Part shown: positions 27,157 through 48,217 of the stretch, piece by piece | How positions within the stretch are numbered: the stretch's first letter is position 1 | Layout: each line of letters opens with the position of its first letter | Source: Mugil cephalus | Taxonomy: Eukaryota | NCBI RefSeq assembly: GCF_022458985.1 | Contig: NC_061789.1 | Location: 11,479,707 to 11,543,706 of the forward strand | DNA: 64,000 nucleotides | Reading direction: 5' to 3' | Translations under genes and position numbers: made by a program | Notes under the pieces: model-generated | Database searches by the model: none | What the model was told of the DNA's origin: nothing | What the model saw: only the letters and a program-made list of their open reading frames with translations

Positions 27157-27269
27157 CTGAAACACAAGCGCCATCGATTCACTGGGACATTTATACTAAA
27201 CAGTTGCATGGACTCAGCCTCATCAGGCTTCATAGTTTAACATCATTCAACATCAAGGTGTGCATTCAC

Positions 27270-27386: not shown

Positions 27387-27472
27387 CTGCACACCAACAA
27401 CACGTCATGAAGCCCGGCGGCTTTTCAGCAGCGCTAACCGCTCAAAATCTCAAACTTGTGTGTCTGTGTGAC

Positions 27473-27684
27473 CGTGCGGCCGCCTCCTGGGAGTTGGTGG
27501 TGATCTCGATGGCCAGCTGGACGCTCTTCTGCAGGGCGTCTCGGGTCCTCTGGTCGACAGGCTCCACGGACTGGATGTCCACGCTGCTGATCACCAAGTT
27601 GTTCTGTTTGAAGCAAAGGTTGGGGCGGATCGCCATCTTCTCGTCGAAGCCGAACACAGCGGAACAGATGATCCGGTTGGAGTT
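27473..27684 (-). CDS. mvp: mvp copy 1, exon 12
   Basis: Acceptor tcgtctgcag|AAC, donor CG|gtcaca. Encodes [70 protein letters not shown]. Confidence 0.85.
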
Positions 27685-27809
27685 CTGCAGACGAGACAGA
27701 ACTTAAGATTTAAGAAAGATGTTTCTCTGGAATAAAGGGATATAGATTTTGGTCCATTGTCTACAAACTAGTTCGTCATTTTTTTTAGTAAAAAAACAAA
27801 CACACTAAC

Positions 27810-27954
27810 CTTATGGAAATCATCAAACTGCACCGAGGCGACGGCTCCTCTGATCTTGGAAGCGATGGCTTTACAGGCATCTCCCACAAAGTCAGGAACT
27901 GAAAACAGAGTTGCTGCAGAAGCAGAGTCGGCCGGCAACTTGATGTCAAAGTGC
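27810..27954 (-). CDS. mvp: mvp copy 1, exon 11
   Basis: Acceptor ctcttcag|G, donor AAG|gttagt. Encodes (W)[48 protein letters not shown]. Confidence 0.85.
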
Positions 27955-28052
27955 CTGAAGAGGGAAACACAGTGAAGACCTGTGTTACAGATGATTGTGA
28001 TCATGAAATAGTAAAACCGGAGGTGTTTTCCGGCGTTGGACTGTGTGGTTAC

Positions 28053-28250
28053 CAGTTGTAGGAGAGCTGCAGCTGCAGGCGGGCGTGGTCCGCCGTCTCT
28101 ATGGTGATGATGTCAGTGAAGAAGTCTGGCCCCAGCAGGAGGCAGATGGCCTTGATGACGTTGGGCCTCTTCGGTTTGTCCCCGGACAGCGACAGCACGG
28201 TGAAATGCTCATCGGGTCCCAGCATCACCAAGTCCGGCCCAAACATCACC
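28053..28250 (-). CDS. mvp: mvp copy 1, exon 10
   Basis: Acceptor tgtctgcag|G, donor TG|gtaacc. Encodes (R)[65 protein letters not shown]. Confidence 0.85.
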
Positions 28251-28326
28251 CTGCAGACACAACACGATCAGCTCCTCTATCCAACCTCTACACCCAACAC
28301 CCACACAGTCAGGAGAGACGCCCCAC

Positions 28327-28562
28327 CTGGCTTTCTTCTCTCTGTAGTCGTACACCTGGACAGCGGCGTTGTGAGGGACCCTGTAGGAGACCACCCTGGT
28401 CTTCTCCCTCCGCCCGTCCTCTCCCATATTTTGGCGGTCGGAGCGGTCGGACAGCGGGTCGAGGCGGGCGGCCAGCAAGGCCTCGACCTTTGGAGGAAGC
28501 TCCTTCTCCCACAGCTCCTCATCCTGGGTCAGCATGTAGGTGTGACCGATCACCGCTCGCAC
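28327..28562 (-). CDS. mvp: mvp copy 1, exon 9
   Basis: Acceptor cctctcag|GTG, donor AG|gtgggg. Encodes [78 protein letters not shown]. Confidence 0.85.
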
Positions 28563-28633
28563 CTGAGAGGCCGACGGCACACGGTTAGCTCATAGTCACA
28601 TGAAGCCGGAGCAGAAAACCAGTTAGCTCGCAC

Positions 28634-28864
28634 CTTTCCAGTCTTGTTGTCCCTGACGTAGATCCCCTCGTTCTCGTCCAGGGGGATGGCCTCTTGCCTC
28701 AGCACCACCTCCACCGTGGCGGGGGGGACGTACTCGATGGGGCCCCGCAGCATCCAGCGGTCTCCGGGGCGACGGAGGATGCCGCTCCTCCGGGTGCGCT
28801 TAGGCCTGCTCTCCATGGCCCCCTCCTCTTCCTCCTCCTCCTCCTCGTAGTCCTGCTCCATGTG
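28634..28864 (-). CDS. mvp: mvp copy 1, exon 8 (carries a lineage-specific poly-Glu plus basic insertion)
   Basis: Acceptor tctctgccag|CAC, donor AAG|gtgcga. Encodes [77 protein letters not shown] (human ...[57 protein letters not shown]). Confidence 0.85.
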
Positions 28865-28924
28865 CTGGCAGAGAGAATGGGGCAGAGACAGGAGGGGGGT
28901 GGAAATAAAGGTTAATGTGGGGAT

Positions 28925-28975
28925 GCATTGGCGTGGAGGAGGAGAAGGAGGAGGAGATGGAGGAGGAGAGGGGAT
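28925..28975. repeat. 12-bp minisatellite (ggaggaggagaa)n in mvp intron 7, 3 units here versus 6 in the paralog at 46525-46612
   Basis: Unit 1 reads ggaggaggagaa ggaggaggagat ggaggaggagag. Unit 2 has ggaggaggagaa five times, then ggaggaggagag. Confidence 0.8.
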
Positions 28976-30371
28976 CGGAGGAAGGCACTGATTAAAAACA
29001 ACAGAGTAAGTGAAAAAATAAAGCGATGGAGTAATAAAAAGAAGAAGAAATGAACGGAGGGACGTCGGGAGAGAAACAAAGAAAAGTGTGTGATGAGTTA
29101 GCAGGAAGAAAAAATGAGGACTTTGACACGATGTCACCTGACCCACAGGTGTGTCTCACCTTTCTACCTACATACCAGAGCTGCTTTAAGAACGTACAGG
29201 TGGTCTTTCTTCCAGACACGCCTCTGTGAAAGCACTATTTGATTTTCTAATCTCCTCCACCTGCTGCTTGAGGACCGGTTACACAAGATCAATGGTGCAA
29301 TGTACATCTCCTCCACCTGTCACTGCAGCAGCTCCTCACACAGAGGACGGACGGGGTTAATGTGTTTGAGCTGGGCGTTGACTGTCAGATTCCTGTAGTT
29401 CACCGGGACAAAGTGCGCAAGGGGCGAATGGCAGGGTGAAGAAATCTAAGCCACGCTGCAGTGAAATATGACAGCAGCTCAACCAAGATGCTCCTGCTAC
29501 ATAACAATCAGGGTGACCCCTCTGCTTCCCACCACTTAGTGACAGCAATGTGTCACTCAGTCGTTTAACAAGCTCCAACCCCAAAATGCAGCGTTTTTGT
29601 GCAAATATCGAATCAAAAAGTGTCAAAAAGTCTACATTTTAATTAGACTTGATGTCAATTTCATTGTTCTTTTTATTGTGTTAAACTTTTCTTATTTTTA
29701 ATAGGGCTGGGCGGTATGACAAAAAAATTATTTTTTTGTTCACAACATTTTCTACGGGTTGAGAGAGGAGTTAATACAGGAGATTGACTGAGGATGGACT
29801 ATTTTACTGCGATTATGGGTAAATGTTGGTGTGGAAATTTACAGCTCAGAGATAAAAAACTAATTAAATGTCATTAATATAACATGAAGAAACAAGGACA
29901 ATTATTGTTTCATTTATTTTTACATATTTATTCATATTTAAACTACTATATCTGTAATGTTCATAGCAGCGCAGATGGCTACTGTAATAGTTGTAGTCTG
30001 CGCGCAACATTTTTTTGTCATTCATAAAAGATAAAATTGGGGACACTTCCTGGGATCTCGGTGATAATAAAACCAACTTGAGGCTTTAAACCTGTTCTTG
30101 TTGCAGCTTCGTGTTTCCTGAACTTTTAGCCTGTCTGGCGTCCTGTTGTTTCGTGCAGCTTTACGTACGCATGATGAACCACATTGGTTTCAGCTTGTTA
30201 CACTGTAGTAGATTTGATTCAGTTATTGAAAACAAATCAAACCAACACAGTGGTAACATCTGAATCGCCACCGGGGCCACTTTGTCCCGGAAAAGTTGGA
30301 CCCCGAGGTCAAAAAGTTTGAAGACACCTGCTCTATAGGACGTCCACTTTTCCGAATCAGTCTGCCCTCAC

Positions 30372-30497
30372 CTCCTCGGTGTCGGTGAAGGCCTCCACGG
30401 CTCGCAGCACCAGGCCCTCCTCCTCCGACAGCACGTACACGTCCTGGATGCCCTGTTCAAGATGCTCACCCGGCTGCAGGAAAAAGGAGCGCTCACC
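30372..30497 (-). CDS. mvp: mvp copy 1, exon 7
   Basis: Acceptor cctccttccag|GGT, donor GAG|gtgagg. Encodes [42 protein letters not shown]. Confidence 0.85.
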
Positions 30498-30586
30498 CTG
30501 GAAGGAGGTAGATTAGTGTTTTTTTTGATTGATTGGGTATGTGACTTTACTATAAACACTAAACACTGTATCCGGAGGCATCTCAC

Positions 30587-30823
30587 CTTCACCACCTTCT
30601 TCTTTCCCAGCTGAGGCTTGCCGTCGTGCCCGACCGGGTCCAGGATCACGCAGTACTGCCTGCTGCTCAGGGTGGTCACGTTTACCACGCCCACCACCTC
30701 CTCCGCCACAGAGGGGATGTGGGCCTCCCTGTCGGCCATGGTGACCAGCCACTCCTCCCCCGTGCGGCGGTCCTGTCCGCCGGCGTCTTTGAAGGGCCGC
30801 AGGGCGCGGACGTGCAGCGCTTT
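30587..30823 (-). CDS. mvp: mvp copy 1, exon 6
   Basis: Acceptor gcgcctccag|AAA, donor AAG|gtgaga. 237 nt encoding [79 protein letters not shown]. Confidence 0.85.
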
Positions 30824-31191
30824 CTGGAGGCGCAGCAAAGATATGTCAGACGGTCCGCAGCTGTTTGTGAACGCACCATAATTGAAGTTTCTAAGAGCTG
30901 CGTCCAGGCACATATATAATTAGAAGTGTCTCCGTCATAAAGATGCTGCTGAGACGTTAATAACCACTGTTTTATCTACAATCCTGTTCTCAACCGTTCT
31001 GTTGTTTATTCACTTCTGGGTTTGTAAAATAGGAAGTAGCAAGAAATCTATGTCACAGTTCCGCAGTTTTTTTATACATGTCACCTGAGCCACATAGTGG
31101 TAACCACATGATTCTTACTTGGCCGTGAAAACAGGAAGTGGCCTCTATCTTTACAGCAAGTGGAAACAGAAACAGATGAAGCGGAGAGTCA

Positions 31192-31286
31192 CCTTGTCGG
31201 TGAGGATGAAGGCGTTGACGATGTCGATGACCTCCTCGTGAGCACCTGGAAGGTACGCGCCCACTTTGCAGACCAGCCACTCGTCG
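31192..31286 (-). CDS. mvp: mvp copy 1, exon 5
   Basis: Acceptor aaatgtgcag|GC, donor AAG|gtgact. Encodes (G)[31 protein letters not shown]. Confidence 0.85.
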
Positions 31287-31437
31287 CCTGCACATTTAGC
31301 CACGAGTGGGAAAAAAAAAACGTGACAGGAAGGAGAAGAGAAAGAAACCTTAAATCTTTGTCTTTCTAATCTATTGTTGGTATTATGTGAAGTGTTCTGT
31401 GTGAAGAAAGTTTGATTTTTGTGTGTGTGTCTGTTAC

Positions 31438-31569
31438 CTGTGACCCTCTGGACTCCGCCTCGGTCTTTGCCCTCCTTGCGAGCTCTCAGCCTGATGGCCT
31501 GGTTCTCTCGGATCACTGTGGCCTTGATGGTCTCCAGAACCGCCACCTCCTTCCTGGGGATGTAGGTCC
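31438..31569 (-). CDS. mvp: mvp copy 1, exon 4
   Basis: Acceptor ttcttccag|GG, donor ACAG|gtaaca. Encodes (G)[43 protein letters not shown]. Confidence 0.85.
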
Positions 31570-31821
31570 CTGGAAGAAAACCAGATGTTGTTAGTGGGGA
31601 TCTTTGGGTCCTATGGGTTGAGGGGAGGGGCCTCTGTGGGTCATCTCACAGATACTTGATCAGTTTGGGATCTGGTGAATTGGATTTCAGGAACGATGGG
31701 GCTGATCTGTTCAGAAATCTGGAGGAAAAATATTCCTTGGGGAAAACATCAAGAATAAAAGAAAGTGACCAAAAGGCTTGAAGATGCACTGAGAGTTTTT
31801 CCAGGAGCTGTGGGATCCCAC

Positions 31822-31945
31822 CTGGTCCTTCGAACAACCACTCGTCTCCGGCCACTCTCTTCTCCCCTCCCGCCTCCTCAAAGTCCAGCAGAGCCTGCAG
31901 ACGCAGCGCCGTGTCCGGATACACGATCTGCAGAGGTGTCGGATC
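31822..31945 (-). CDS. mvp: mvp copy 1, exon 3
   Basis: Acceptor ttctccttcag|GAT, donor CCAG|gtggga. Encodes [41 protein letters not shown]. Confidence 0.85.
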
Positions 31946-32073
31946 CTGAAGGAGAAAAACAAACAAACAAAAAAAAAGATTACCTTTCTCAACGTAGTTT
32001 CTCTTTATTTAAAGACTGACTTTTATTCTAATCTTTTGATTACAATAATCTAAAGCCTGGTTTCCATGCCAAC

Positions 32074-32269
32074 CTTCTGGATCTCCTCTCCTGGGTACAG
32101 AGGGAACGGGTCCTGCGTCAGGCGGATCTCCAGGTCGGCGTGACGCAGCTTGGCTTGACCCGATTGGTCAAACAAAACCTGGCCGTTGTCGTCACGGGCA
32201 ACGGGGTTGGCGATAACGCAGTAGTGACGCGGTGCAACCATCGTCATACGAACCGGTAAAAAGAGCACT
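32074..32269 (-). CDS. mvp: mvp copy 1, exon 2
   Basis: Acceptor ttttttaacag|A, donor AAG|gttggc. Encodes (R)[65 protein letters not shown]. Confidence 0.85.
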
Positions 32270-32408
32270 CTGTTAAAAAAGAAAAAAAAGAAACTGATGT
32301 TAAATTCTGATTTGAATAAGAGATGTGAGACACTGACTGGAAATGGAGCTGAAACTACATGAAAGACAATCAAACTCCAGCAGCTACAACACAGAGAGTC
32401 TGTCCCAC

Positions 32409-32527
32409 CTCTCATTGTCCTGGCGGATGTAGGTGAGTGGTCCAACCTCCACGCGGGCGATGTTGGTGTTCTGGTCCAGGACGTGGATATAGTGATGAGG
32501 AGGGATGCGGATGATGGATGCATCCAT
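32409..32527 (-). CDS. mvp: mvp copy 1, first coding exon (start codon ambiguous)
   Basis: Donor GAG AG|gtggga. The ATG at 32525-32527 gives [39 protein letters not shown] (human [41 protein letters not shown]). In-frame ATGs also lie upstream at 32537-32539 (MEAL, not conserved in the other copies) and 32570-32575 (MMSKK...). A candidate acceptor cctgtgcag sits at 32588-32596, so the true start may be [12 protein letters not shown]..., which would put the exon's upper end near 32575-32587. Confidence 0.7.
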
Positions 32528-32639
32528 CAGGGCTTCCATCTCAGGCCCACGGTTTCCACCCTTCTTAGACATCATGGCAAAGAAACGCTGCACAGGAACA
32601 GAAACATGTGGAGGGCTTTAGGTCCACGCCATGTACGGA

Positions 32640-33180
32640 TTCCACTGAACACCCCGACCCCTACGGCTAAACTGACTGTTGATACGAACACAGACAAAAG
32701 AAGCAAGTACGAACAGACAAAGAATGCAAAAAAAAAAAGATTCAAAAAGACACAAAAAAAGACCCCAAACACACAAAAAATTATCATCAAGTTGCAAAAA
32801 GCAGCCACAACGACACAAATAACCAGAAACTGACAAAATACAATGACAACAGATGAAAAAAACAAAACTCAATAATGAAAATACAATGTGGGCACATAAA
32901 ACACCCACAAAGATAAAAACACAAAAAAACAAAACAACTTCAAAGATGCAAAAGAAGCACACCTGGTAATATCTAAAAAACAACCTCAAAGTTGAAAAAA
33001 AATAAGATCTCAGACACAAAAACAACCACAAGAAAGTAGAAAACCCCACAAAGATGCACAAAACAACCACTACAAAGCCAAAAAAGATCTCAAAGACAAA
33101 AGAACAACCAAAAACACATAGAAATGCAACAGAAGGAGAAAAAAATATGTAAAAACAACAACAACAAAAAACATTAAAGG
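32640..33180. repeat. A-rich low-complexity tract (degenerate CAAAAA/ACAAAA repeats) immediately 5' of mvp exon 1
   Basis: Visible as caaaaagacacaaaaaaagaccccaaacacacaaaaaatt... and it generates the spurious F/L-rich minus-strand ORFs 32572..33070. The paralogous tract is at about 50290..50830. Confidence 0.7.
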
Positions 33181-34780
33181 GTCTTTATTCTTTTATGCGC
33201 CAATATTCATCATTGTGAATGAATGTGTGGATGTTCTGTCTCCATATCTCAACCACGAGTCTAACTGATGACAGATCAATGGACGACAGATTAACTGAGT
33301 TTATAAGACAAGCTCTGGTTTCATTCATTTTTATCAGTTTAAAGTCAACTAAACAAAGTTGAGCGTGTCCACTTGGGTGAACACTGAGATCACAGAGAAG
33401 TGCAAGAAAAAAAAAAAAGAACAGAGACACACCTTGGTGCAAAGTCAACCCCAGACGGGTTTATCTCGTTTATCTTGTGACACAATCGACGATTGTTGCT
33501 GATTGAATAGTACGAGTCAGTTTACTGAGCATCAGAACGACATCTGAGCGTCAGCAAGACACAATCTGGGGCCAGTAACCAATGGGACGGTCGATGGGAA
33601 AATAAGACGGGGAAATAATGTGATGGACGTCTGTTGCAAATGCGTCAAGAGAAAATGTCATGAATCAGCTCTTCTCACCGCTATCATAAAAGTCTTTAAG
33701 AATACATGCAGCTCATGTGACAAACACGAATCAGTGCATCAATAGAAAAATCAAAAAGACTTAATCGGAATCTACCTGGACAACGTATGTGCATGTAAAC
33801 ACGTAACTCCGACTAAAATCAGAGTTCTCTTTATCCAATTAAGACGCCCAGATAATGTGATTGGAATTCGGTTTTCTCTGCCATGTATACGCCTTAATCA
33901 GACTACAATCGGATAACGCATGTTGCTCCACAACCGCTGCACTGGCACGTGACCCCTGAACAAAAACATTGAAGAAAGCCGATCGCAGAAGAAGTTATTA
34001 GATTTTTTTTTCGGTGCATGTAAACTCGGACAAGGACTGTAGTCAGAAAGTCGAGTTTTGAGCATAGCTCGGTTAAGCTCTGCATGTAAATGCACTGACT
34101 GTTTGGACTCAGCCCATTCAAGGCTGCATGGCTCCTTTTGTTCCCCAGACAAAGAAGGTCTTTGAACTCAACCTCCCAGCAGCCTTCACCTTTTTACACC
34201 TAGGTGTGAAACCTCCACTCTTGACCCCCATTGGTCACTGTGTGGCCAAAACCTCTGAGGTCATCGAGCCAATAAAAGGGGGGGGGGCGCTTCCCCTTAC
34301 TCTCTTCTCTTAAGCTGTATTTCCATACACAGCCTACCTCTACACCACTGCGCACCACAAACTTTAAATCGACATTTCCGTTGATAGAAGGTGGGCCAAA
34401 CGAGGCCAAAGGGATACTTTTCCAGGACTTAAAAGTACCTCCTCTGTGGTTGGGCCGAAGTAGGTGAATTGGAGTTGAAAATGTGAAGTAAAATGCTGCT
34501 TACTACTGATTGGTTAGAAGAAAAAAAAAATTGTCACGATGCAGCGCCAGGTACAAAGCTGGATGTTTTGACCAGACGGACACTCCTAAGCAATGGAAAA
34601 GGTAGTTAAAAAAAGGTGGTGAGATGTGGAGTTGTTTAGCGGTAGGCTGCATATGGAAATCTGGGCCTAGTTAGCTTATCTTGCACATAACTTGACCAAG
34701 CATAGAATACTTCAACCTTGCCAATGTATGTATTGATTGAAACTGGTAAAATACTTTAGCTCATGACTGTTGTCTATAGA

Positions 34781-34952
34781 CCAGTGTTTCCCAGTCCTGC
34801 ATGTTTTAGATGTTTTCCTCCTCCACCACACCTGATTCAAATGAGTGGCTCGTTATCAGGCCACTGATCATTTGAATCAGGTGTGTTGGAGCAGGAAACA
34901 TCTAAAACATGCAGGGCAGTGTTCCTCGAGGACCAGGATTGGGAAACACTGG
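34781..34952. mobile_element. hAT-like palindromic MITE (172 bp) with 8-bp target-site duplication
   Basis: Termini CCAGTGTTTCCCAGTCCTG...CAGGATTGGGAAACACTGG are perfect inverted repeats, and the whole element is a near-perfect hairpin. It is flanked by TCTATAGA (34773-34780) and TCTATAGT (34953-34960). The paralog at 52385-52556 has a TIR point change (CCGGTG). Confidence 0.7.
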
Positions 34953-35442
34953 TCTATAGTCTATAGTCAGTAAACCTGTAACTTGAATTTGAAAATCGTG
35001 GTGAACAAAGGACACACCTTTGTTCCCCTCACATCACATGTTGGCCTTAGCGTCCATCATGGAGACCAGTTGTTTGTAAACCTCTTTGTCTCTGGACCTT
35101 TCGCATTGTTTCCCTCACATAGACACTTGGCTTCTTCACACTAACACACACATATCCACATGTGTACATAGTTAAGTGTTTAAAGTTTTGTTATTTCAGT
35201 TTTTAGATGTGTCGGATAAAATTCCTTGAAACTTGAAACGTTGCTCATCTGTTAATGTTGTAGAGGAGTGAATGTGCCAACCTCTACACTGTAGAACCCT
35301 TGAATCCTTCAAATTTGCTACTATTAATAAGGTAATATTGTTTGTGATTATTAAGTTAATTATTAAGTTAATTAACAACATTCAGTGTTAATAGTTAGCA
35401 AACCCACCTTTATGAGACAGATTTGTTAAATAACTGAATTTT

Positions 35443-35565
35443 GATTAATTTCTGACTTTTAATTCTTCATATGTCAGTGATGGCATCACAATTTTTCATA
35501 AAAAAATAAAATAAAATAACATAAAAACACTGACATATAAAGGGTTAAAAGTCAGAAATTTATCA
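35443..35565. repeat. Imperfect palindrome, MITE-like (~37-bp arms at ~85% identity around a ~48-bp A-rich spacer)
   Basis: Left arm gattaatttctgacttttaattcttcatatgtcagtg; the right arm cactgacatataaagggttaaaagtcagaaatttatc is its reverse complement. The deletion junction of truncated copy 3 (38722) maps to the inner edge of the right arm. Paralog at about 53043-53165. Confidence 0.55.
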
Positions 35566-36197
35566 AACTTTTGGTATTATACTTAGTAAAGAAGTGGATT
35601 AAATGATTCAGGTTAAAAAGTAGAAAAAAATATTGAATTAAATATTATATTAAATTAAAATATGCTATATAATATGCTTCAGGGCATTTTTGTCCCTTAA
35701 TGGTAACAACGTAATAATTTTATAATCAGGTATGAGGATTAAATTCTCCCTGAAGCAGAATAAATAGGTGTGTATGACTTTTACTTGGAAACCCTCCCTC
35801 TGAGGTCATTAAACAGCTGATTCATGCAAAGGCAAAAATACACTCCAAAGAGCCTGCTCCTTTCTAAACCATGGTCCGGACGAATCTCAACAGACAGTAC
35901 GCATCTTTACATTGCATCCTGGTTTACACTCAACACCAGTAAACAGCAAACAAAAAAAAGAAACTGCCAAACCACTTCCGCATGATATACCTCAACGACA
36001 AACTGCATGAGAAATAGTGTTCATGTAAATTCCCAGGCCTCGCAAAAGACAAACATTGACATTTATACGATTTACAGGCTTTAGGATTTACATAAATGTT
36101 TCATATTTATTTTTAATATTTAACCCGTGAATCCAAAGGGAGATTGCAGAGAAGAGTTGTGGAGAAGACGCACTCGGAAATTGCTCCAGCGTCTTAC

Positions 36198-36355
36198 CTG
36201 TGCTCTTTGCGGCTGTACGGGAAGACGTGCGGCCGAATCCGGGCGGAAAGAGTCAATTTTAAGAAAATGAGAATAAGTTCACAGAGTAAGAGGCCGCAGA
36301 CGGAAAGGAGATTCGTCTGACGGGAAATGTGTGTCGTGTGGGCGTCAGCAACAGT
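36198..36355 (-). promoter_or_regulatory. mvp: Candidate mvp promoter and non-coding first exon (element Y, copy Y1)
   Basis: The minus strand reads ...GCCGCACGTCTTCCCGTACAGCCGCAAAGAGCACAG|gtaagacg with a consensus donor. Just upstream lie CACGTG, TGACGgg and GC-rich motifs. It sits 3.6 kb 5' of the mvp exon 1 acceptor, and human MVP also has a non-coding first exon. The element recurs four times, always 5' of an mvp copy or fragment. Confidence 0.35.
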
Positions 36356-36900
36356 CACGTGGGTAAAAAAATAAATATAGAAAATAAATGAGAAAACATT
36401 TATGAGACAACATAAGAAACGTAGACAGTCTTCAGATACTTATATTATACGGTCTCCTTATGAATAAAAGAAAAGTTCTGAGTAATTTTTAATTATCGAG
36501 CAGCGATTAGTTAACGTGACTTCCGCTTTCGAGATCCGGCGGAATAAAGACATTTAACAGCCTACTGAAAATAAATTTCCTTTTATGAACTTGCACTTGG
36601 AATATTTAGTAACTTACAATTGGAACATTTATTAAATAACAATTTTTTAAAAATATAGTTGAATTTTATGTTTTTTTTTTAATTTTTATTAAAATGTTTA
36701 TTATTCTTATCTGTCATTTTATTATTCTTACTTATGTGATTATTTCCAAAAATATATATACATTGACATTATTTTTAAAATATTATCTATCATTATTATT
36801 TATAATTTGTTATTGTTTTTTAAAATATACATTTTGTTTAATCTCACGTACCCCCTGGAGTACCTTCAAGTAGTATATACGGTCAATGATACCCCCAGGA
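36356..36900. repeat. AT-rich element A', second copy of the mvp 3'-flank element at 23740-24260 (also at 41340-41860 and 53950-54480)
   Basis: Shared string gaaatatagaaaataaat...aacgtagacagtcttaagatac...cgagcagcgattagctaacgtgacttccgctttcgagatccggc...gaacttggacttggaatatt... The Y1|A' boundary at about 36355 marks the older tandem-duplication junction. Confidence 0.7.
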
Positions 36901-37084
36901 CATTTTGAGAACCATGATCTCCATACATCCACTGAATATCACCCTACTGTATACCCACTGTTGTAGTTGATTTTAAGTAGTGCAAGTATTTTAAACTTTG
37001 TAAAGAAAGTAGAACGTTCCATAAATAAAAAAAATAAAAAAAAAAGAGAGAAAACACCTCAGTAAAGTGTCAGTTTTTAAAATT

Positions 37085-38722
37085 GTTAAGTATACCAGCA
37101 GCAGTACTCGATGGGGCCCCGCAGCATCCAGTGGTCTCCGGGGCGACGGAGGATGCCAATCCTCCCCCGTGCGGCGGTCCTGTCAGCAAAGATATGTCAG
37201 ACGGTCCAAAGGAAGGAGAAGAGAAAGAAACCTTAAATCTTTGTCTTTCTAATCTATTGTTGGTATTATGTGGAGTGTTCTGTGTGAAGAAAGTTTGATT
37301 TTTGTGTGTGTGTCTGTTACCTGTGACCCTCTGGACTCCTCCTCGGTCTTTGCCCTCCTTGCGAGCTCTCAGCCTGATGGCCTGGTTCTCTCGGATCACT
37401 GTGGCCTTGATGGTCTCCAGAACCGCCACCTCCTTCCTGGGGATGTAGGTCCCTGGAAGAAAACCAGATGTTGTTAGTGGGGATCTTTGGGTCCTATGGG
37501 TTGAGGGGAGGGGCCTCTGTGGGTCATCTCACAGATACTTGATCAGTTTGGGATCTGGTGAATTTGATTTCAGGAACGATGGGGCTGATCTGTTCAGAAA
37601 TCTGGAGGAAAAATATTCCTGGGGGGAAAACATCAAGAATAAAAGAAAGTGACCAAAAGGCTTGAAGATGCACTGAGAGTTTTTCCAGGAGCTGTGGGAT
37701 CCCACCTGGTCCTTCGAACAGCCACTCGTCTCCGGCCACTCTCTTCTCCCCTCCCACCTCCTCAAAGTCCAGCAGAGCCTGCAGACGCAGCGCCGTGTCC
37801 AGATACACGATCTGCAGAGGTGTCGGGTCCTGAAGGAGAAAAACAAACAAACAAACAAAAGATTACCTTTCTCACAGTAGTTTCTCTTTATTTAAAGACT
37901 GACTTTTATTCTAATCTTTTGATTACAATAATCTAAAGCCTGGTTTCCATGCCGACCTTCTGGACCTCCTCTCCAGGGTACAGAGGGAACGGGTCCTGCG
38001 TCAGGCGGATCTCCAGGTCGGCGTGACGCAGCTTGGCTTGACCCGATTGGTCAAACAAAACCTGGCCGTTGTCGTCACGGGCAACGGGGTTGGCGATAAC
38101 GCAGTAGTGACGCGGCGGAACCATCGTCATACGAACCGGTAAAAAAAGCACTCTGTTAAAAAAGAAAATAAAAAAACTGATGTTAAATTCTGATTTGAAT
38201 AAGAGATGTGAGACACTGACTGGAAATGGAGCTGAAACTAAATGGAAGACAATCAAACTCCAGCAGCTACAACACAGAGAGTCTGTCCCACCTCTCATTG
38301 TCCTGGCGGATGTAGGTGAGTGGTCCGACCTCCACACGGGTGATGTTGGTGTTCTGGTCCAGGACGTGGATGTAGTGATGAGGAGGGATCTGGATGATGG
38401 ACGCATCCATCAGGGCTTCCACCTCAGGCCCACGGTTTCCGCCCTTCTTAGACATCATGGCAAAGAAACGCTGCACAGGAACAGAAACATGTGGAGGGCT
38501 TTAGGTCCACGCCATGTACGGACTCCACTGAACACCCCGACCCCTACGGCTAAACTGACTGTTGATACGAACACAGACAAAAGAGGCAAGTACGAAGAGA
38601 CAAAGGATGCAAAAAAAAGATTCAAAAAGACACAAAAAAAATATCATAAAGATGCAAAAAGCAGCCACAACGACACAAGTAACCTGAAACCGACAAAATA
38701 CAATGACAACAGATGATGGAAA
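37085..38722 (-). pseudogene. mvp: Truncated mvp 5' fragment (copy 3): exons 1-4 with introns, ending in a mosaic junction
   Basis: Exon 1 is 38292..38411 ([10 protein letters not shown]...), exon 2 38152..37957 (VPPRHYC), exon 3 37829..37706 ([13 protein letters not shown]), exon 4 37452..37321. Intron 4 continues down to 37212. Then 37105-37157 copies an exon-8 interior piece, 37158-37184 an exon-6 interior piece and 37185-37207 an intron-5 piece, followed by the AT-rich element. Retained intronic pieces argue against a retrocopy. Confidence 0.8.
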
Positions 38723-39568
38723 AAGAACACTGACATATAAAGGGTTAAAAGTCAGAAATTTATCAAACTTTTGGTATTATACTTAGTAAAGAAGTGGATT
38801 AAATGATTCAGTTTAAAAAGTAGAAAAAAATATTAAATTAAAATTCTCCCTGAAGCAGAATAAATAGGTGTGTGTGACTTTTACTTGGAAGATCTCCCTC
38901 TAAGGTCATTAATGCAAAACAGCTGATTCATGCAAAGGCAAAAATACACTCCAAAGAGCCTGCTCCTGTCTAAAACACGGTCCGGATGAATCTCATCAGA
39001 CTGTACACATCTTTACATTGCATTCTGGTTTTGTTGTATATTGATGCGCTGAAGAAAGAAGTGATCACCGCTTAAAAAGGTTTATTTACAAGAAAGAACA
39101 ATGTCAAAAACTCAGCCGAATCTGAGAGGGCTTCTCGTTCAGCTCCACCATACACACACAAAACTTATGTCCTTATATCTGGTTAGTTTTAAGATCTGGC
39201 ATTTGGTAAATGACTTTTTGACCTCAAACATACACACTTTATACACACTTCACATACACAAAAGGGAAAGAAGAGAAAAACAAGAAGATAATTTACTACA
39301 GTTTCCACTCAACATCCGCAAACCAACAAAAGAACCTGCCAAACGACTTCCGCATGATAAACCTCAACGTCAAACTGCATGAGAAATAGTGTTAATTAAA
39401 GTCCCAGGCCTTGCAAGAGACAAACATTGACATTTATACGATTTACATGCTTTAGGATTAACATAAACGTTTCATCTTTATTTTTAATTTTTAACCCGTG
39501 AATCCAAAGAGAGATTGCAGAGAAGAGTTCTGGAGAAGATGCACTTGGAAATTGGTCCAGCGTCTTAC

Positions 39569-39780
39569 CTGTGCTCTTTGCGGCTGTACGGGAAGACGGG
39601 AAGACGGTCGGCTGCTCAAGCGAATCCGGGCGGAAAGAGTCGATTTTAAGAAAACGAATAAAAGTTTACTGAGCAAGAGGCCGCAGACGGCGAGCGAGGG
39701 GGAGATTGTTCTCTGTTACCGGAAGAGGAGGAGAGGTCGCGTCAGTTTCTGGGTAGTAGCAGTGACGTAGGACGTATTTC
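39569..39780 (-). promoter_or_regulatory. Element Y copy Y2, 5' of truncated mvp fragment copy 3 (candidate promoter plus non-coding exon)
   Basis: Shares the CAAAGAGCACAG|gtaagacgctgg donor, with upstream ccggaag (ETS-like) and gtgacgtaggacgt (CRE-like). Carries a 30-bp insertion relative to Y1. Confidence 0.3.
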
Positions 39781-40910
39781 AGTAGCTCAGGAAATCTCCT
39801 AATCTCCTAATTTATAATCAGTTAGTCCCTTAGAATAAATATCTGTAAGTTATTTATTTTATTATTATTATTTTTAAAAACTTTATATAACAATGGCTTA
39901 CTCATTTTTGACACTTTACTCATAATTAACATTTTAAAAAGCCTTTATTCTGGCACAAGAGCACACAACAAGATTAAGGGTATTACTTCTGACAAATATT
40001 CAATCAGTAAATACGAACAGATGACAGACCACATACAGTCTTAAAACGTCAATGAATTATATAAAAGATGTCAATAGTAGTGTCATGTGAAAGAAATGAT
40101 GCATTCAAAAATTAAAATAGTGCACTTGGACTGATGACGCATGGGTAAAAACTTAGTTTAGTTTATTTCGAACATGTTAAAAGCAAACAAAATAATCATA
40201 CACCATACAAGGGACATAAAGAACCTAAACAACAAAAAGAAAATGAAAAATAAAGTTAAAATTACAGATTTTACATGACCAAAAAGAAGTGGAAGTACAG
40301 ACTTATTTTATCCCACCCCTTCTTAATAGATCAATAGTATTTGTATATTTGTATAATCATAGCAATATTCTGTTTTGAAATCTGTGTTTGTGCCTTCTTC
40401 ACTGCTGCACAGGTCTTCCACCCTTCTCCCCATTCATGTGTCGAGGCTTTTTAAGGTGTCTCCTAAAGCCAATGATTAGTTCATTTTCATTTATTTGGAC
40501 TACTTATGGGCCCAAACAAAGAATGACAGTATGTATAGACCATTGGGAAAATCTGGATATCCTAAAGCAAAATGCCAGGCATCACTTTATATTCAGTTTG
40601 AAGTAGCTCAGTCTCAGTAAAAAACTTAAGAAAAAATAAAACACAGGCTCAGGATAACATTATAGATATTTAATGGGTAAACAAACAATTCAGCTGAGAG
40701 GACAAAGAATGCACAAAACAAGGGGGAATATCAAAAGAAAAGCACGCACACAGATAACATCCAGCTCCAGTTTAACCCTTACATGTTTAATTCGTTTTAT
40801 AAACCACTATTTTAATGTTTTTCTGTCAAAGATATTGTTTATCCAACTAGAACAGAGTAAAATAGAATATTTCTCAATATGAAGCATTGTGTGAAAGGTT
40901 TAAAATGATT

Positions 40911-41100
40911 GCTTAAAGAGAAGTTAAATAAGGTGACACAAAATAACGTAAAACTTTTAATGAAGTTCATCATGTTTATCGTTTCAATGCTGGCCAGTGG
41001 AGTTCATCAGGGAATGATGTTGGGTCTTCTTTATCTTCATTTTTTTTCTATGAACTTCTAATTATTTTTTTCAAAAGAAGTTCTTCATGATTAAATCTTC
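40911..41100 (+). mobile_element. Degenerate reverse-transcriptase fragment from a LINE/non-LTR retrotransposon, just inside the unit 1 | unit 2 boundary
   Basis: Encodes ...SMLASGV(H/P)QGMMLGLLYL..., a decayed version of the RT motif GVPQGSVLGPLLF. The paralogous ORF 58465..58647 reads MLASGVPQGMMLGLLYLQFF. Confidence 0.45.
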
Positions 41101-44100
41101 TAATTTAAGGTTATGAACCACCGATGAGCTACAGTTCATCTTTCCAATGGTTCAGCTAAGAAACAAAATCTATGTTTTATATCCAAGATTTGTCTTGAGA
41201 GGATTTCTACTCTTTTTCTGTAAAGGATAATCATTTCACCATGTCACGCCATCTTGCAGGAATTCATCGTGCACGAACGAATACTGCTGCTGATTTTTTT
41301 TTTAAATTACTCCGACGTCGCTAGCCATAGCTAGAGGGCACGTCTGATAAATAATAAAAAATAGTAATAAAAAAGAAATACAGAAAATAAATTAATGAAT
41401 ATACAACATAAGAAACGTAGACAGTCTTAAGATACTTCTATCATACAGTCTCTTTATGAATAAAAGAAAAGTTCTAAGTAATTTTTAATTATCGAGCAGC
41501 GATTAGCTAACGTGACTTCCGCTTTCGAGATCCGGCAGAATAAAGACGTTTAACAGCCTACTGAAAATAAATTTCCTCTTATGAACTTGGACTTATTTGG
41601 TAACTTACAATTTATTAAATAACTATTTTAAAAAAATATTACTGAATTTGAATTTTATGTGTTTTTTAAAAAAATATTTATTAAAATATTCATTATTCTT
41701 ATCTATCATTTTATTATTCTTATTTGATGATTTAAAAAAAATGTATACATTGACATTATTTTTAAAATATTATCTATCATTATTATTCATAATTTGTTAT
41801 TGTTTTTTAAATATACATTTTGTTTAATGTCACGTACCCCCTGGAGTACCTTCAAGTAGTATATACAAAAAAGAGAGAGAAAACAACTCAGTAAAGTATC
41901 CGTTTTTAATATTGGTAAGTATACCAGCAGCAGCAGCAGCAGCACACAGGTCTTAACGTAGGAACAACAGCACTTTTTAAGGCAAAGAGAAAAACTACAC
42001 AACCTCCACCACAGAAGTAGAAATGCTCAATACAGACTATACGTTTATATTTGTTAATTTCTGTGGCTATAGTGCAAAGCAGAAAGGGAAATCTTTGGCT
42101 TTTAGGTGTCAACAAAGTAAACAAAAAGTTATGAAGTTTTTAGGCACAATTATTCCATTAACAGCATCAGTTCACGGACACATCACATGTTGTCAGTTCT
42201 GCTCTGTCAAAACTCAGAGTCTCATTTCTTCTGTAAAGTAATGATCAGTAACAGTGAACATCGCGTCTACGTTGTACAACCTGGAGAAAATAAACCAAGG
42301 ACGTGAGTCTGCTTCCCTGCTCCGTCTGAAAGTGTGTCATCTAATAAACAAACAGCAAATTTTATTTTTAGAGGTCTGACATTTTTATGCAGAGAGTGAA
42401 ATGCGTTTTAATATTAGACGACCCACTTTTATGTAAGAACAATGAAACAGTTCCTTTTATTTCTCATGCTGAGTTTTGAACATAGAATTTTGATTGTAGA
42501 GAAGCAGTGAATCTAAGGATTCAGTAACTTCCTGGTTATATAAACTGGACAAACTTTGTTTAATTTTTCTGATCCAAGCATAAGATAGAAAGTATAGAAA
42601 AAAGGGTTTTCTTTTAAGCTTGTTTGTTTATTTTAATTGTTCACGCTGTACATTTGCATGAACATAATTCTAGTAAACATTACTTGTGGCGTGGTCAGCT
42701 TTTTTATTTTTATATTTCCCCTCCCCTTCCTCACGGTGCCGAACCCTGTCCCAACCCTGGCAGCGCCCCCAGCAGGCCGTTGGCCGTAGTGAAGAGGTTT
42801 ATGGGAGACGAGCCATCCGTGATGAGGGTGGACTTGAGTCCCAGAGCCTGGAGCATCTTCACCTGTAGGAAACAAACCACTGTGAGTTTAAAATCCTGCA
42901 CAAAGTCAAGGTACTTCTAATGAGCCGCTTTACGTCCTCTCTGAAGTAGATTTTAATTTCTAATTTTTGGTACGGTACCTGCAGCTCTGGTCCGGCTCTG
43001 GCGATCTCCTTCAGCGTGTCACTGCCCAGACTCTCCACCAGCTTCTTGAAGTGGGCACTTTCGATTTGAGCCAGACGCTCCTGCTTCTCCACCTCCAGAT
43101 TATCCATCTCCTTCTTATAGTTGAGCTCCTGCTCACGCGCCTTCGCCAGGCGCTGGAGCTCCGCCTCCTGCGCACACACACAGAAAAAAAAAAAAACACA
43201 GATGAAAACAAACTTCTGATTAAATCATTTTGGTGACCGACATGCTGTAGAGATGAAAGTCATATGTACTTAACAGAGCTTTAAGGTTGGCATTAAACAA
43301 AACGTGCAGCCGATTATCCCAGCGCATGCTGTTGTGGGCGGAAGTAGAGATGGTAGTGTATGTTATCGAGCTTACTGTCCGGTGGGAAGACAGAGTTGAG
43401 GAGGCTAATGAGCGCGAGAGAGCTCGATATTCAGAGATGGCAGCAGAAGCTGAGCAGCGAGGGTAGAGCGACTGCGTGCGGCCGGTGGAGGTGGGTTGCC
43501 GTGGAACCCACCATCTCCTGTGTGAGCTGGGCATTCGTGGGAGAGAACAAAGGGTGACATGTCCCTGGCAGCAGAGCGATCAAGTGAGTGGCTGTGGCTG
43601 AGGAGGAAACATGCTAGCTGGGGAGCATGCTGGGGAGCAAGGTTAGGCTAGCTGGTTTTAGTAGTTAGTAGTAGGGCTAAGCTAATCTCTCGGTTGAAAG
43701 TTACACGGTTGTGTGGTGGCAGCATGGAGAGGGGGCCCCCCAAGACACTGGAACTTACTGTTCAGCCTTCTTGAGGTGTCGTGGGCCTTAACAAAACATC
43801 GGTGAAGGGAGGTGCCCACTTGAAAACCCCAAAGATGTGTCGCATACTGCCTATTGCCGTTGGCTAGGCTAGTTAGATGGCGTCTTCTTGTTGGTTGCTA
43901 ACCGGTAGCTGACAGCGAGCCTGCTGGTCGGTTTTTCAGTTGGACTGGGCTTCTAAAGTCAGCCCTGGATGCCTAAATATTGAGCAAAAAATGACCATAC
44001 TCCATCAGTTTATTTTTAAGAAGGAAAATAAAGCAATGCAAGCAATTTTCTACCTAAATAAAATTGCCAAAAAGCAAAAAATTTCCCCTTGCTGACAAAA

Positions 44101-45432
44101 AGAACTTTTTTTTAATTAGTATTTTTTAAAGAAATTTCTTTGAAATGCCCTAAAACATTTAACACCTCGGCAGGCTTTCTGTGACCTCCAAACCACCACA
44201 CGACCCAACATCCACAGGCCCAATTTCCCTATTTTTGATATGAAAATTAGGTTGGTTGGAAATTTAGTTTTTGTAGTAGCGACACAGCCAAGTCGTTTCA
44301 GCATCTCAGAGGCGTGCAGTAAGAGACATGCAGCAGCCCACAGTTATCCACTGAAAAGCTGCCAACACCGGCCGGGTTCTTATTCTTGTACTTACCATTA
44401 CCATTTCGTTACAGTACTCCATCCTCTTTTCTACCTACAAAGTCTTCTGAAATCCAGTTCCTCAAATTATTCTCCTCCTCCTCTTGCGTCTACTCCTGTT
44501 GATTCTATCACTCCCAGCTCCTCCTTTTTTCACAGCTGCTAATTATTGGCATCTCTACATCAGTCGTACCAGCAGCTCCGGTGTATTTTATTGAGCTCAT
44601 GCGTGGAGTTTTATGCTAAGAACAGTAAGAGTGGGCGTACCGCCTCGATCCTTTGAGCCTCTGCCTTCAGTTTGGCCTCGCTGACTGCCGCCTCTCCCTG
44701 GATGCGAGCCGCCTCAGCGCGGGACTGAGCCTCCGCCTTAGCAGCTCCCGTGCTCTCCACCGCAGCGCTGAAACACAAGCGCCATCGATTCACTGGGACA
44801 TTTATACTAAACAGTTGCATGGACTCAGCCTCATCAGGCTCCATAGTTTGACATCATTCAACATCAAGGTGTGCATTCACCTGAGCGCCTCCAGCTCCAG
44901 CAGTTCCTTCCTGGCTTTCTCCGCCTGGGCCTGGTCGGTGATCTTCTGCCTCTCCAGCTTCCCCCGAGCCTCCTGCTCCAGACGCTCCGCCTCGTGTCTG
45001 CACACCAACAACACGTCATGAAACCCGGCGGCTTTTCAGCAGCGCTAACCGCTCAAAACCTCAAACTTGTGTGTCTGTGTGACCGTGCGGCCGCCTCCTG
45101 GGAGTTGGTGGTGATCTCGATGGCCAGCTGGACGCTCTTCTGCAGGGCGTCTCGGGTCCTCTGGTCGACGGGCTCCACGGACTGGATGTCCACGCTGCTG
45201 ATCACCAAGTTGTTCTGTTTGAAGCAAAGGTTGGGACGGATCGCCATCTTCTCGTCGAAGCCGAACACAGCGGAACAGATGATCCGGTTGGAGTTCTGCA
45301 GACGAGACAGAACTTAAGATTTAAGAAAGATGTTTCTCTGGAATAAAGGGATATAGATTTTGGTCCATTGTCTACAAACTAGTTTGTAATTTTTTTTTTA
45401 GATACTCTGGGTAAAAAAACAAATGCACTAAC

Positions 45433-45577
45433 CTTACGGAAATCATCAAACTGCACCGAGGCGACAGCTCCTCTGATCTTGGAGGCGATGGCTTTACAGG
45501 CATCTCCCACAAAGTCAGGAACTGAGAACAGAGTTGCTGCAGAAGCAGAGTCGGCCGGCAGCTTGATATCAAAGTGC
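45433..45577 (-). CDS. mvp: mvp copy 2, exon 11 (His to Arg at the conserved FDDFHK motif)
   Basis: Copy 2 reads GAT GAT TTC CGT AAG (FDDFRK); copy 1 and human have FDDFHK. A 28-bp intronic deletion lies just 5' of this exon, at about 45580. Confidence 0.75.
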
Positions 45578-45650
45578 CTGAAGAGGGATGATTGTGATCA
45601 TGAAATAGTAAAACCAGGAGGTGTTTTCCGGCGCTGGACTGTGTGGTTAC

Positions 45651-45848
45651 CAGTTGTAGGAGAGCTGCAGCTGCAGGCGGGCGTGGTCCGCCGTCTCTAT
45701 GGTGATGATGTCAGTGAAGAAGTCTGGCCCCAGCAGGAGGCAGATGGCCTTGATGACGTTGGGCCTCTTCGGTTTGTCCCCGGACAGCGACAGCACGGTC
45801 AAATGCTCATCGGGTCCCAGCATCACCAAATCCGGCCCGAACATCACC
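45651..45848 (-). CDS. mvp: mvp copy 2, exon 10 (Phe to Leu: [12 protein letters not shown] against [12 protein letters not shown])
   Basis: Copy 1 has cacggtgaaatg, copy 2 cacggtcaaatg. Phe is conserved in human (GPEEQFTVLSLS). Confidence 0.75.
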
Positions 45849-48217
45849 CTGCAGACACAACACGATCAGCTCCTCTATCCAACCTCTACACCCAACACCC
45901 ACACAGTCAGGAGAGACGCCCCACCTGGCTTTCTTCTCTCTGTAGTCGTACACCTGGACAGCGGCGTTGTGAGGGACCCTGTAGGAGACCACCCTGGTCT
46001 TCTCCCTCCGCCCGTCCTCTCCCATATTTTGGCGGTCGGAGCGGTCGGACAGCGGGTCGAGGCGGGCGGCCAGCAAGGCCTCGACCTTTGGAGGAAGCTC
46101 CTTCTCCCACAGCTCCTCATCCTGAGTCAGCATGTAGGTGTGACCGATCACCGCTCGCACCTGAGAGGCCGACGGCACACGGTTAACTCATAGTCAAATG
46201 AAGCCGGAGCAGAAAACCAGTTAGCTCGCACCTTTCCAGTCTTATTGTCCCTGACGTAGATCCCCTCGTTCTCGTCCAGGGGGATGGCCTCTTGCCTCAG
46301 CACCACCTCCACTGTGGCGGGGGGGACATACTCGATGGGGCCCCGCAGCATCCAGCGGTCTCCGGGGCGACGGAGGATGCCGCTCCTCCGGGTGCGCTTA
46401 GGCCTGCTCTCCATGGCCCCCTCCTCTTCCTCCTCCTCCTCCTCGTAGTCCTGCTCCATGTGCTGGCAGAGAGAATGGGGCAGAGACAGGAGGGGGGTGG
46501 AAATAAAGGTTAATGTGGGGATGCATTGGCGTGGAGGAGGAGAAGGAGGAGGAGAAGGAGGAGGAGAAGGAGGAGGAGAAGGAGGAGGAGAAGGAGGAGG
46601 AGAGGGGATCGGAGGGAGGCACTGATTAAAAACAACAGAGAACGTGAAAAAATAAAGCGATGGAGTAATAAAAAGAAGAAATGAACGGAGGGACGTCGGG
46701 AGAGAAACAAAGAAGAGTGTGTGATGAGTTAGCAGGAAGAAAAAATTAGGACTTTGACACGATGTCACCTGACCCACAGGTGTGTCTCACCTTTCTACCT
46801 ACATACCAGAGCTGCTTTAACAACGTACAGGTGGTCTTTCTTCCAGACACGCCTCTGTGAAAGCACTATTTGATTTTCTAATCTCCTCCACCTGCTGCTT
46901 GAGGACCGGTTACACAAGATCAATGGTGCAATGTACATCTCCTCCACCCGTCACTGCAGCAGCTCCTCACACAGAGGACGGACGGGGTTAATGTGTTTGA
47001 GCTGGACGTTGACTGTCAGATTCCTGTAGTTCACCGGGACAAAGTGCGCAAGGGGCGAATGGCAGGGTGAAGAAATCTAAGCCACACTGCAGTGAAATAT
47101 GACAGCAGCTCAACCAAGAGGCTCCTGCTACATAACAATCAGGGTGACCCCTCTGCTTCCCACCACTTAGTGACAGCAATGTGTCACTCAGTCGTTTAAC
47201 AAGCTCCAACCCCAAAATGCAGCGTTTTTGTGCAAATATCGAATCAAAAAGTGTCAAAAAGTCTACATTTTAATTAGACTTGATGTCAATTTCATTGTTC
47301 TTTTTATTGTGTTAAACTTTTCTTATTTTTAATAGGGCTGGGCGGTATGACAAAAAAAATATTTTTTTGTTCACAACATTTTCTACGGGTTGAGAGAGGA
47401 GTTAATACAGGAGATTGACTAAGGATGGACTATTTTACTGCGATTATGGGTAAATGTTGGTGTGGAAATTTACAGCTCAGAGATAAAAAACTAATTAAAT
47501 GTCATTAATATAACATGAAGAAACAAGGACAATTATTGTTTCATTTATTTTTACATATTTATTCATATTTAAACTACTATATCTGTAATGTTCATAGCAG
47601 CGCAAATGGCTACTGTAATAGTTGTAGTCTGCGCGCAACATTTTTTTCTCATTCATAAAAGATAAAATTGGGGACACTTTCTGGGATCTCGGTGATAACA
47701 AAACCAACTTGAGGCTTTAAACCTGTTCTTGTTGCAGCTTCTTGTTTCCTGAACTTTTAGCCTGTCCGGCGTCCTGTTGTTTCGTGCAGCTTTACGTACG
47801 AATGATGAACCACATTGGTTTTAGCTTGTTACACTGTAGTAGATTTGATTCAGTTATTGAAAACAAATCAAACCAACACAGTGGTAACATCTGAATCGCC
47901 ACCGGGGCCACTTTGTCCCAGAAAAGTCGGACCCCGAGGTCAAAAAGTTTGAAGACACCTGCTCTATAGGACGTCCACTTTTCCGAATCAGTCTGCCCTC
48001 ACCTCCTCGGTGTCGGTGAAGGCCTCCACGGCTCGCAGCACCAGGCCCTCCTCCTCCGACAGCACGTACACGTCCTGGATGCCCTGTTCAAGATGCTCAC
48101 CCGGCTGCAGGAAAAAGGAGCGCTCACCCTGGAAGGAGGTAGATTAGTGTTTTTTTTGATTGATTGGGTATGTGACTTTACTATAAACACTAAACACTGT
48201 ATCCGGAGGCATCTTAC

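Follow-up and report, generated by a model that had tools for sequence, protein, structure and literature searches.

Two full-length and two truncated mvp copies in a tandem repeat

The window (the whole stretch of DNA that was analysed, 64 kb) is a vertebrate, teleost-like locus and contains zero N bases over its entire length. It carries the gene for the major vault protein (mvp) on the minus strand, flanked by a C2H2 zinc-finger gene (340-1464, minus strand), a CD225/PRRT2-like gene (11917-13127, plus strand) and a Caskin gene (61547-63289, minus strand). All coding exons of mvp were recovered from stop-free segments with a tblastn guide map. We counted the exon with the ATG as exon 1, and by this count the exon numbering used in an earlier note on this DNA is right. 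The best match in the protein search had 93% identity (Osmerus mordax), and none was higher. The closest locus, from Osmerus mordax, has the exons alone in common, at ~80% nucleotide identity. Our literature search found nothing relevant on tandem copies of mvp in fish.

Comparison of the window to itself by BLAST revealed a 17.6-kb tandem repeat (about 23570-41217 versus 41223-58775) with 98-99% identity between the units, each of which comprises one full-length mvp and one truncated copy. The first full-length gene (F1; 24326-32856, minus strand) is the source of the mosaic pieces described below; its last coding exon ends at ~25124 and its ATG exon spans ~32578-32409. The same self-comparison placed the second full-length gene (F2) at about 41934-50495 and the truncated copies at 37104-38716 (D1) and 54703-56319 (D2), all on the minus strand. 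D1 lies 4.3 kb from its parent F1 and has the same orientation. Its coding exons 1-4 (38422-38292, 38152-37957, 37829-37706 and 37452-37321) and introns 1-3 occupy 37321-38422 on the minus strand. The corresponding exons of D2, also on the minus strand, are at 56021-55891, 55751-55556, 55428-55305 and 55051-54920.

A collinear mosaic at the 3′ end of the truncated copies

We mapped the 3′ junction of D1 by searching 37040-37300 against the window with blastn-short and by comparing the sequences register by register. The earlier note had described short pieces of mvp intron 4, intron 5, exon 6 and exon 8 joined to a CAG tract. These fragments do come from the parts of mvp named (E values from 1.6e-23 to 5.4e-8, much better than a 64-kb window would give at random), and they lie where they had been placed, within 1-3 bp; the differences are bases shared at the junctions.

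Read along the plus strand, the junction begins with the end of A′, the old paralog of the mvp 3′-flank element A (37040-37104, corresponding to 24261-24325, 59/65 identical, ending in the (CAG)n tract). It is followed by an island from the interior of exon 8 (37104-37157 = 28730-28783, minus strand, 53/54, E 1.6e-23), which encodes GILRRPGD(R>H)WMLRGPIEY, and by an island from the interior of exon 6 (37155-37184 = 30748-30777, minus strand, 29/30, E 3.5e-9), which encodes QDRRTGEEW. The third island (37184-37207 = 30833-30856, minus strand, 24/24, E 5.4e-8) derives from intron 5, from a parental site 10-33 nt upstream of the exon 6 acceptor, and the 55-bp deletion between it and the exon 6 island takes out this acceptor together with the first 46 nt of exon 6. 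The three islands are thus 54, 30 and 24 bp long. Beyond them lies the remnant of intron 4 (37208-37320 = 31325/31327-31437, minus strand), which matches cleanly from 37210 = 31327; the "AA" at 37208-37209 may belong to intron 4, with one mismatch, or be a filler of 2 bp. From there, one long alignment (37210-38716 = 31327-32856) covers everything from intron 4 to exon 1, plus roughly 300 bp of upstream sequence.

The parental coordinates climb monotonically on the plus strand (24325 < 28730 < 30748 < 30833 < 31327), and all pieces have one orientation. The pieces had been called out of order, although the earlier note itself lists them in the order of the gene; they are in fact collinear with it. 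Free order and orientation would give such a collinear, same-orientation arrangement with a chance of 1/48. The truncated mvp amounts to the full gene minus four segments of 4404, 1964, 55 and 470 bp, with three islands left between them, and we conclude that an unprocessed mvp paralog has lost internal segments and that the junction is the scar at its 3′ end.

The mosaic recurs in the second unit at 54703-54808 on the minus strand (exon 8 island 54703-54756, exon 6 island 54754-54783, intron 5 island 54783-54806), and the rest of D2 (54809-56443, minus strand) contains the intron 4 remnant from 54809, exons 1-4, the upstream region, a 9-bp filler (56320-56328) and a short segment that starts far upstream of the full gene (56329-56443; described for D1 below). 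The second copy of the junction had been reported as identical to the first. It is present, but it is not wholly identical, as one substitution separates the two (37169 G / 54768 A). That the copies differ by this single substitution bears out the earlier conclusion that the junction predates the split of the 17.6-kb units.

The mosaic continues on the 5′ side

The scar had been delimited to 37085-37235. This interval is real, but it is only the 3′ part of a collinear mosaic that runs on to 38716-38840. The region shared with the full gene upstream of exon 1 (38423-38716, minus strand, about 300 bp) ends at 38716 = 32856, the limit of homology with the full copy. There the 5′ junction of D1 holds a 9-bp filler, TGGAAAAAG (38717-38725), and a 2669-bp segment of the full unit (X; 32857-35525) is skipped. 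The filler is followed by a young copy of the start of segment C, which begins 2.67 kb upstream of the full gene. This young copy (38726-38840) is 115 bp long, corresponds to 35526-35640 and has 2/115 mismatches; the probability of two or fewer mismatches in 115 bp at 8.44% divergence is 0.0027. At its boundary with the old part of C′, a 99-bp segment of C (35641-35740) is missing. The old part of C′ (38841-39690) is a paralog of C 35741-36303 with 7-9% divergence and holds a private 287-bp segment.

On the other side of the truncated gene, A′ occupies 36366-37103 on the minus strand and is paralogous to element A at 23771-24325; it has a private 154-bp segment at 36881-37033 and terminates in (CAG)3 at 37096-37104. 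The whole arrangement of A′, mosaic, 5′ part of mvp and C′ is collinear with A, mvp, X and C of the full unit, with six skips in total (4404, 1964, 55, 470, 2669 and 99 bp). Four join-points fall inside 106 bp and two more at 38716-38840, and all the segments map within 12 kb. We sought a templated origin for the private 154-, 287-, 99- and 62-bp segments and found no match for them anywhere in the window. A Pfam search of the open reading frames in X found no transposon protein domains.

Two ages of sequence divergence

We compared each part of the truncated unit to its source, counting substitutions only. The islands are 1.9% diverged, the mvp 5′ block 2.2-2.7% and the first 115 bp of C′ 1.7%, whereas A and A′ differ by 8.5-9.2% and the rest of C and C′ by 7-9%. 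When pooled, the 1.74-kb block at 37104-38840 has 44/1725 substitutions (2.55%) versus 90/1066 (8.44%) in the flanks (Fisher p = 4e-12). Divergence changes abruptly at both edges. There are 6 mismatches in the final 65 bp of A′, versus 1/54 in the adjoining exon 8 island, and C′ passes from 2/115 mismatches to 13/185.

We asked whether the difference between 8.4% and 2.55% could simply mean that the AT-rich flanks evolve faster. This was ruled out by the comparison of unit 1 with unit 2, in which A, A′ and the old part of C′ differ by 0-0.4% and the mvp parts by 0.9-1.25%.

This is the divergence pattern of interparalog gene conversion, with a patch of low divergence bounded by higher divergence that is not due to the local rate. 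Such conversion leaves a continuous tract, however, and here six skips break the tract, so either the copying was discontinuous or deletions followed it. Together, the divergences of block, flanks and units give a relative order of events: a tandem duplication of the A-mvp-X-C unit (~8.4%), then the homogenisation of its middle together with the scar (at most 2.55%), then the split of the 17.6-kb units (~1%). We infer that the junctions of the scar are not older than the young block, because homogenisation could not have acted separately on islands as short as 24-54 bp. The earlier note had also offered error-prone repair of a large deletion. Since the mosaic lies inside an older duplicate, the contrast of 8.4% with 2.55% points to more than that, namely to copying from a paralog, of the gene conversion, break-induced replication (BIR) or SDSA type. 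The full-length paralog thus probably served as the template for the middle of the older duplicate unit, with the deletions formed at that time or afterwards.

Features of the breakpoints

Microhomology at the switch points, which the earlier note had proposed to score, is limited. The perfect microhomology at the four joins of the 3′ scar is 1 bp (G, 37104), 3 bp (GCC, 37155-37157), 1 bp (C) and 0 bp. At the join of the exon 8 and exon 6 islands, the parental sites match at 10/11 bp (GCCGCTCCTCC / GCCACTCCTCC), with a probability of 3.5e-4 at a random pair of sites, and this is the sole join above chance. The mosaic has three substitutions (37132, 37159 and 37209), and two of the three lie within 2 bp of a join (P = 0.055). 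Breakpoints are weakly associated with simple repeats (3/12, P = 0.058). The parental sequence on the 5′ side contains an inverted repeat with 51-nt arms (35429-35479 and 35528-35578, 84% complementary) and a 48-nt loop, and the breakpoint at 35526 falls at the boundary of loop and arm, on the inner edge of the right arm. This breakpoint, at the start of C, is the only one with a hairpin; none was found at the others. Measured to whichever retained end is nearer, the templates of the islands are 470 bp, 550 bp and 2.5 kb away.

Coding potential of the truncated copies

Neither D1 nor D2 has a stop in its four coding exons, and both retain all their GT/AG sites. The reading frame of exon 4 continues without interruption across the remnant of the intron and all of the mosaic, up to a stop at 37072 (D1) or 54671 (D2). 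The hypothetical truncated product of 273 aa matches the Pfam families PF01505 Vault (3e-29) and PF17794 Vault_2 (5e-26). The full MVP architecture is missing, as the later repeats, the shoulder and the cap-helix are gone; exons 1-4 alone are present and the tail is an out-of-frame remnant. Fixed differences between truncated and full copies comprise 3 nonsynonymous and 5 synonymous changes, and the private changes of D1 comprise 2 nonsynonymous and 2 synonymous codons; both sets are too few to infer selection. Bases specific to the truncated copies lie in codons 28 (ACC), 56 (CCG) and 107 (GTC). The protein search returned no protein with the tail encoded by the mosaic, and the exact products of the two mosaic-spanning reading frames are not on record there. 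The same search turned up short "MVP-like" gene models in several teleosts.

Because exons 1-4 are kept and the rest of the gene is gone, the truncated copy is most likely a pseudogene, as judged from its sequence. We think it very unlikely that the truncated copies are working genes for a protein of about 290 aa that would combine the N-terminal MVP repeats with a new tail, although the open exons and frame, the intact splice sites and the ~300 bp of retained upstream sequence would allow it. The N-termini of MVP meet at the waist of the vault, and if the copies did work, their product could therefore cap or disturb vault assembly. Caution is warranted in annotation, as the locus consists of two full mvp genes and two truncated copies with open reading frames.

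A proposed discontinuous copying event and its alternatives

We give about an even chance to a reading in which one discontinuous, paralog-templated copying or repair event made both the young block and the collinear islands. An old tandem duplication produced two units, each with flank A, mvp, X and C. After a break in the old second unit, repair would have copied the full-length paralog by long-tract gene conversion, break-induced replication or SDSA. The new strand would have left its template repeatedly and re-primed further along with little or no microhomology, and the product would have been joined to the old flanking sequences A′ and C′. Later the whole 17.6-kb unit was duplicated, or else this unit lies on both haplotypes. 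The spacing of the breakpoints favours a single event. With independent random deletions of the observed sizes, three islands all of at most 54 bp have a probability of 2e-4 to 8e-4 in a test that assumes uniformly placed deletions and that was applied post hoc, after the region had been picked as odd.

Other observations bear on the same question. The 10/11-bp microhomeology, the base changes near joins (possibly in excess) and the breakpoint at an inverted repeat fit a single event, and microhomeology is a signature of template switching (PMC6902434). Counting against it, 4 of the five or six joins have 0-1 bp of microhomology, which is the chance level, and plain end joining fits them equally well. 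No piece is inverted or out of order, and successive simple deletions predict exactly such collinearity. The two ages would be given equally by gene conversion of an intact second copy and subsequent deletions.

The leading competitor is a stepwise decay in which a full second mvp was kept similar by gene conversion, lost its function and then suffered five or six independent simple deletions by end joining or replication slippage, which chanced to leave three small islands. We regard this as possible but on balance unlikely. Collinearity and a single orientation follow from it automatically, and the joins resemble those of simple end joining. Big indels are frequent here (154, 287 and 99 bp in A′, C and C′; 55 bp between the units), and the 55 bp missing between the exon 6 and intron 5 islands could readily have been lost in a small event of their own. 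Evidence to the contrary comes from the improbable spacing of the islands under uniform independent deletions and the retained 1.5-kb 5′ block, which lost only one 20-bp stretch over the same period; in addition, every deletion would have to fall between about 2.5% and about 1% divergence. Another proposal is a single large deletion (31326 to 24326) joined by polymerase-theta-type alternative end joining, with the islands as templated insertions and no paralog donor. Inserts of 24-54 bp, small microhomologies, an ambiguous 2-bp filler and substitutions adjoining the junctions all suit this proposal. Inserts made by polymerase theta are usually templated within tens of bases of the break ends, though, and here they would have to come from 470 bp to 2.5 kb within the deleted stretch. 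The age boundary exactly at the A′ junction and the second set of skips at 38716-38840 are also left unexplained, and we consider the proposal improbable.

We also considered that the junction could be an artefact of assembly, either as a chimeric join or because the 17.6-kb "duplication" is in fact two haplotypes placed in tandem. The units are ~1% apart, a difference within the range of fish heterozygosity. Yet the junction occurs twice, with one private substitution in it and differing private substitutions nearby, which implies that at least two distinct molecules, paralogs or haplotypes, carry it. The window also has no N or gaps, and the pieces are all collinear and set in 1.5 kb of clean homology. 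We judge an artefact to be very improbable. Least credible of all, and to be given almost no weight, is an origin through RNA (a retrocopy of a misspliced transcript) or through capture by a transposon (Helitron or Pack-MULE), even though short exon pieces are stitched together and the reading frame is open through the mosaic. Allowing for shifts by microhomology, 0/4 deleted segments have both GT and AG ends. The exon 8 island directly abuts the (CAG)3 of the flank paralog, and neither the poly(A) nor the dispersed location of a retrocopy is found. A processed retrocopy, which the earlier note had already dismissed, is excluded, as the copy still has introns 1-3 in full, GT/AG ends included, retains parts of introns 4 and 5 and lies in tandem with its parent. 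Capture by a Helitron or Pack-MULE was rejected because A′ and C′ are collinear paralogs of the flanks of mvp itself and not transposon ends.

Comparison to known rearrangements

The class of mechanism proposed here, discontinuous copying from a paralog, is already well known, and the locus reveals no new mechanism or element. Template switching with complex breakpoints at the ends of long-tract gene conversions has been observed experimentally in mammalian cells (Hartlerode et al. 2016, PMC5104497), and template switching is also known in BIR (reviewed in PMC3678771). As in those systems, a homologous donor would have been copied for kilobases, the strand would have been displaced and re-primed with little or no homology before joining the second end, and the joins show either 0-3 bp of microhomology or the insertion of a few bases. 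The mvp event differs in that it is inferred from an evolutionary footprint in the germline rather than observed, in that it would have used as donor a paralog whose flanks are about 8% diverged, and in that all its jumps go forward on one donor with none inverted.

The earlier note had named template switching of the FoSTeS/MMBIR type as one of two possible origins. The spacing of the joins and the one 3-bp microhomology within 10/11 matching bp agree with this, but the other joins have 0-1 bp and there is no back-and-forth movement. The scar resembles rearrangements such as those of PLP1 (PMC6902434) in its several join-points clustered within about 100 bp, in its short segments templated nearby, in the one join with microhomeology and in the possible excess of point changes at the junctions. 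It differs from them in that there is a net loss rather than a gain, within one copy; the segments are strictly collinear and direct, without the back-and-forth switching typical of FoSTeS; and most joins are without the microhomology of at least 2 bp that is usually reported.

Internally deleted transposons are a further parallel. They arise by abortive gap repair, as in the origin of Ds-del from Ac (PMC3260210) and the birth of MITEs from Tc1/mariner (PMC3814204). Here too, the two ends of the template survive while its interior is gone, the joins carry microhomology or filler, and the proposed process is an interrupted synthesis-dependent repair from an intact copy. The mvp template, in contrast, is a cellular gene that belongs to a tandem duplicate, no excision site is present from which the gap could have started, and the islands kept from the interior derive from the template and follow its order. 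The copies can also be compared to an ordinary unprocessed pseudogene in a tandem array under concerted evolution, as they are intron-bearing, truncated tandem paralogs without evidence of function whose genic part is closer between copies than the flanks are. The mvp scar is unusually composite for such a pseudogene, with its six skips and three islands of at most 54 bp.

The locus offers a clean, base-resolved case from a vertebrate germline, in which a young patch of six forward jumps along a donor sits inside old flanks. It indicates that truncated gene copies and scars that look "exon-shuffled" can form without RNA or transposons.

Structure of the 17.6-kb repeat

The tandem repeat that carries the mvp copies comprises unit 1 (23570-41217) and unit 2 (41223-58775). 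Its left edge lies at approximately 23570, about 100 bp further left than a simple BLAST indicates. Close to this edge, a T26 run in unit 1 (23663-23688) corresponds to only T10 in unit 2, and unit 2 lacks a 23-bp segment. Because the overall divergence between the units is ~1%, they may be two haplotypes arranged in tandem. Divergence was also computed by segment. Segment Y, which is AT-rich (GC ~0.31) and spans 39691-41222 in unit 1 and 57290-58775 in unit 2, differs by 2.5% between units, more than twice the 0-1.25% of all other parts of the repeat.

The mvp copies and their upstream sequence

The true start of mvp is probably an upstream site at ~32578, matching the MVP models of other fish. 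At the first codon of MEALMD, the full-length copy of unit 1 (F1) has ATG (32539), whereas the full-length copy of unit 2 (F2, 50182) and the truncated copies D1 (38422) and D2 (56021) have GTG, giving VEALMD. We counted five private exonic changes in F1 versus one in F2.

A GGAGGAGGAGAA / GGAGAA tandem repeat (28935-28985, and 46569-46582) lies directly upstream of the coding part of exon 8, close to a stretch that codes for EEEEEEEE. When F1 is aligned with F2 by self-BLAST, the alignment is interrupted at this tract and its two pieces overlap, which suggests that the repeat varies in length.

Two hairpin-forming repeats were found upstream of the full mvp and could be MITE-like elements: an inverted repeat with 51-nt arms (35429-35578), one arm of which marks the breakpoint of the truncated copy, and a 124-bp stretch that is 85% self-complementary (34796-34915). 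The plus strand is strongly A-rich upstream of both the full (32870-33200) and the truncated (38601-38660) mvp, with an AT skew of up to 0.29 and degenerate 20-23-bp tandem repeats within these tracts. This composition results in spurious long Phe/Val-rich minus-strand open reading frames of up to 188 aa.

Gene neighbourhood and short MVP-like proteins in other fish

The neighbouring genes encode a C2H2 zinc-finger protein (340-1464, minus strand), a CD225-family (PRRT2-like) protein with at least two exons (11917-13127, plus strand) and a Caskin protein (61547-63289, minus strand; Caskin proline-rich domain, E 4e-40). An imperfect direct repeat (421-666; 84-bp period, 73% identity), located within the GC-rich region of the zinc-finger gene, probably reflects the repeated zinc-finger units. 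In human 16p11.2, PRRT2 adjoins MVP, an arrangement that the PRRT2-like gene beside mvp resembles.

From several teleosts, the protein search retrieved “major vault protein-like” gene models of only 200-440 aa. Three of these short models lie on a single contig of Syngnathus acus, and in Thunnus and Scomber a PF06140 (Ifi-6-16) domain is fused to MVP repeats. Judging from these matches, mvp copies that are truncated or chimeric may be a recurring feature of fish genomes.
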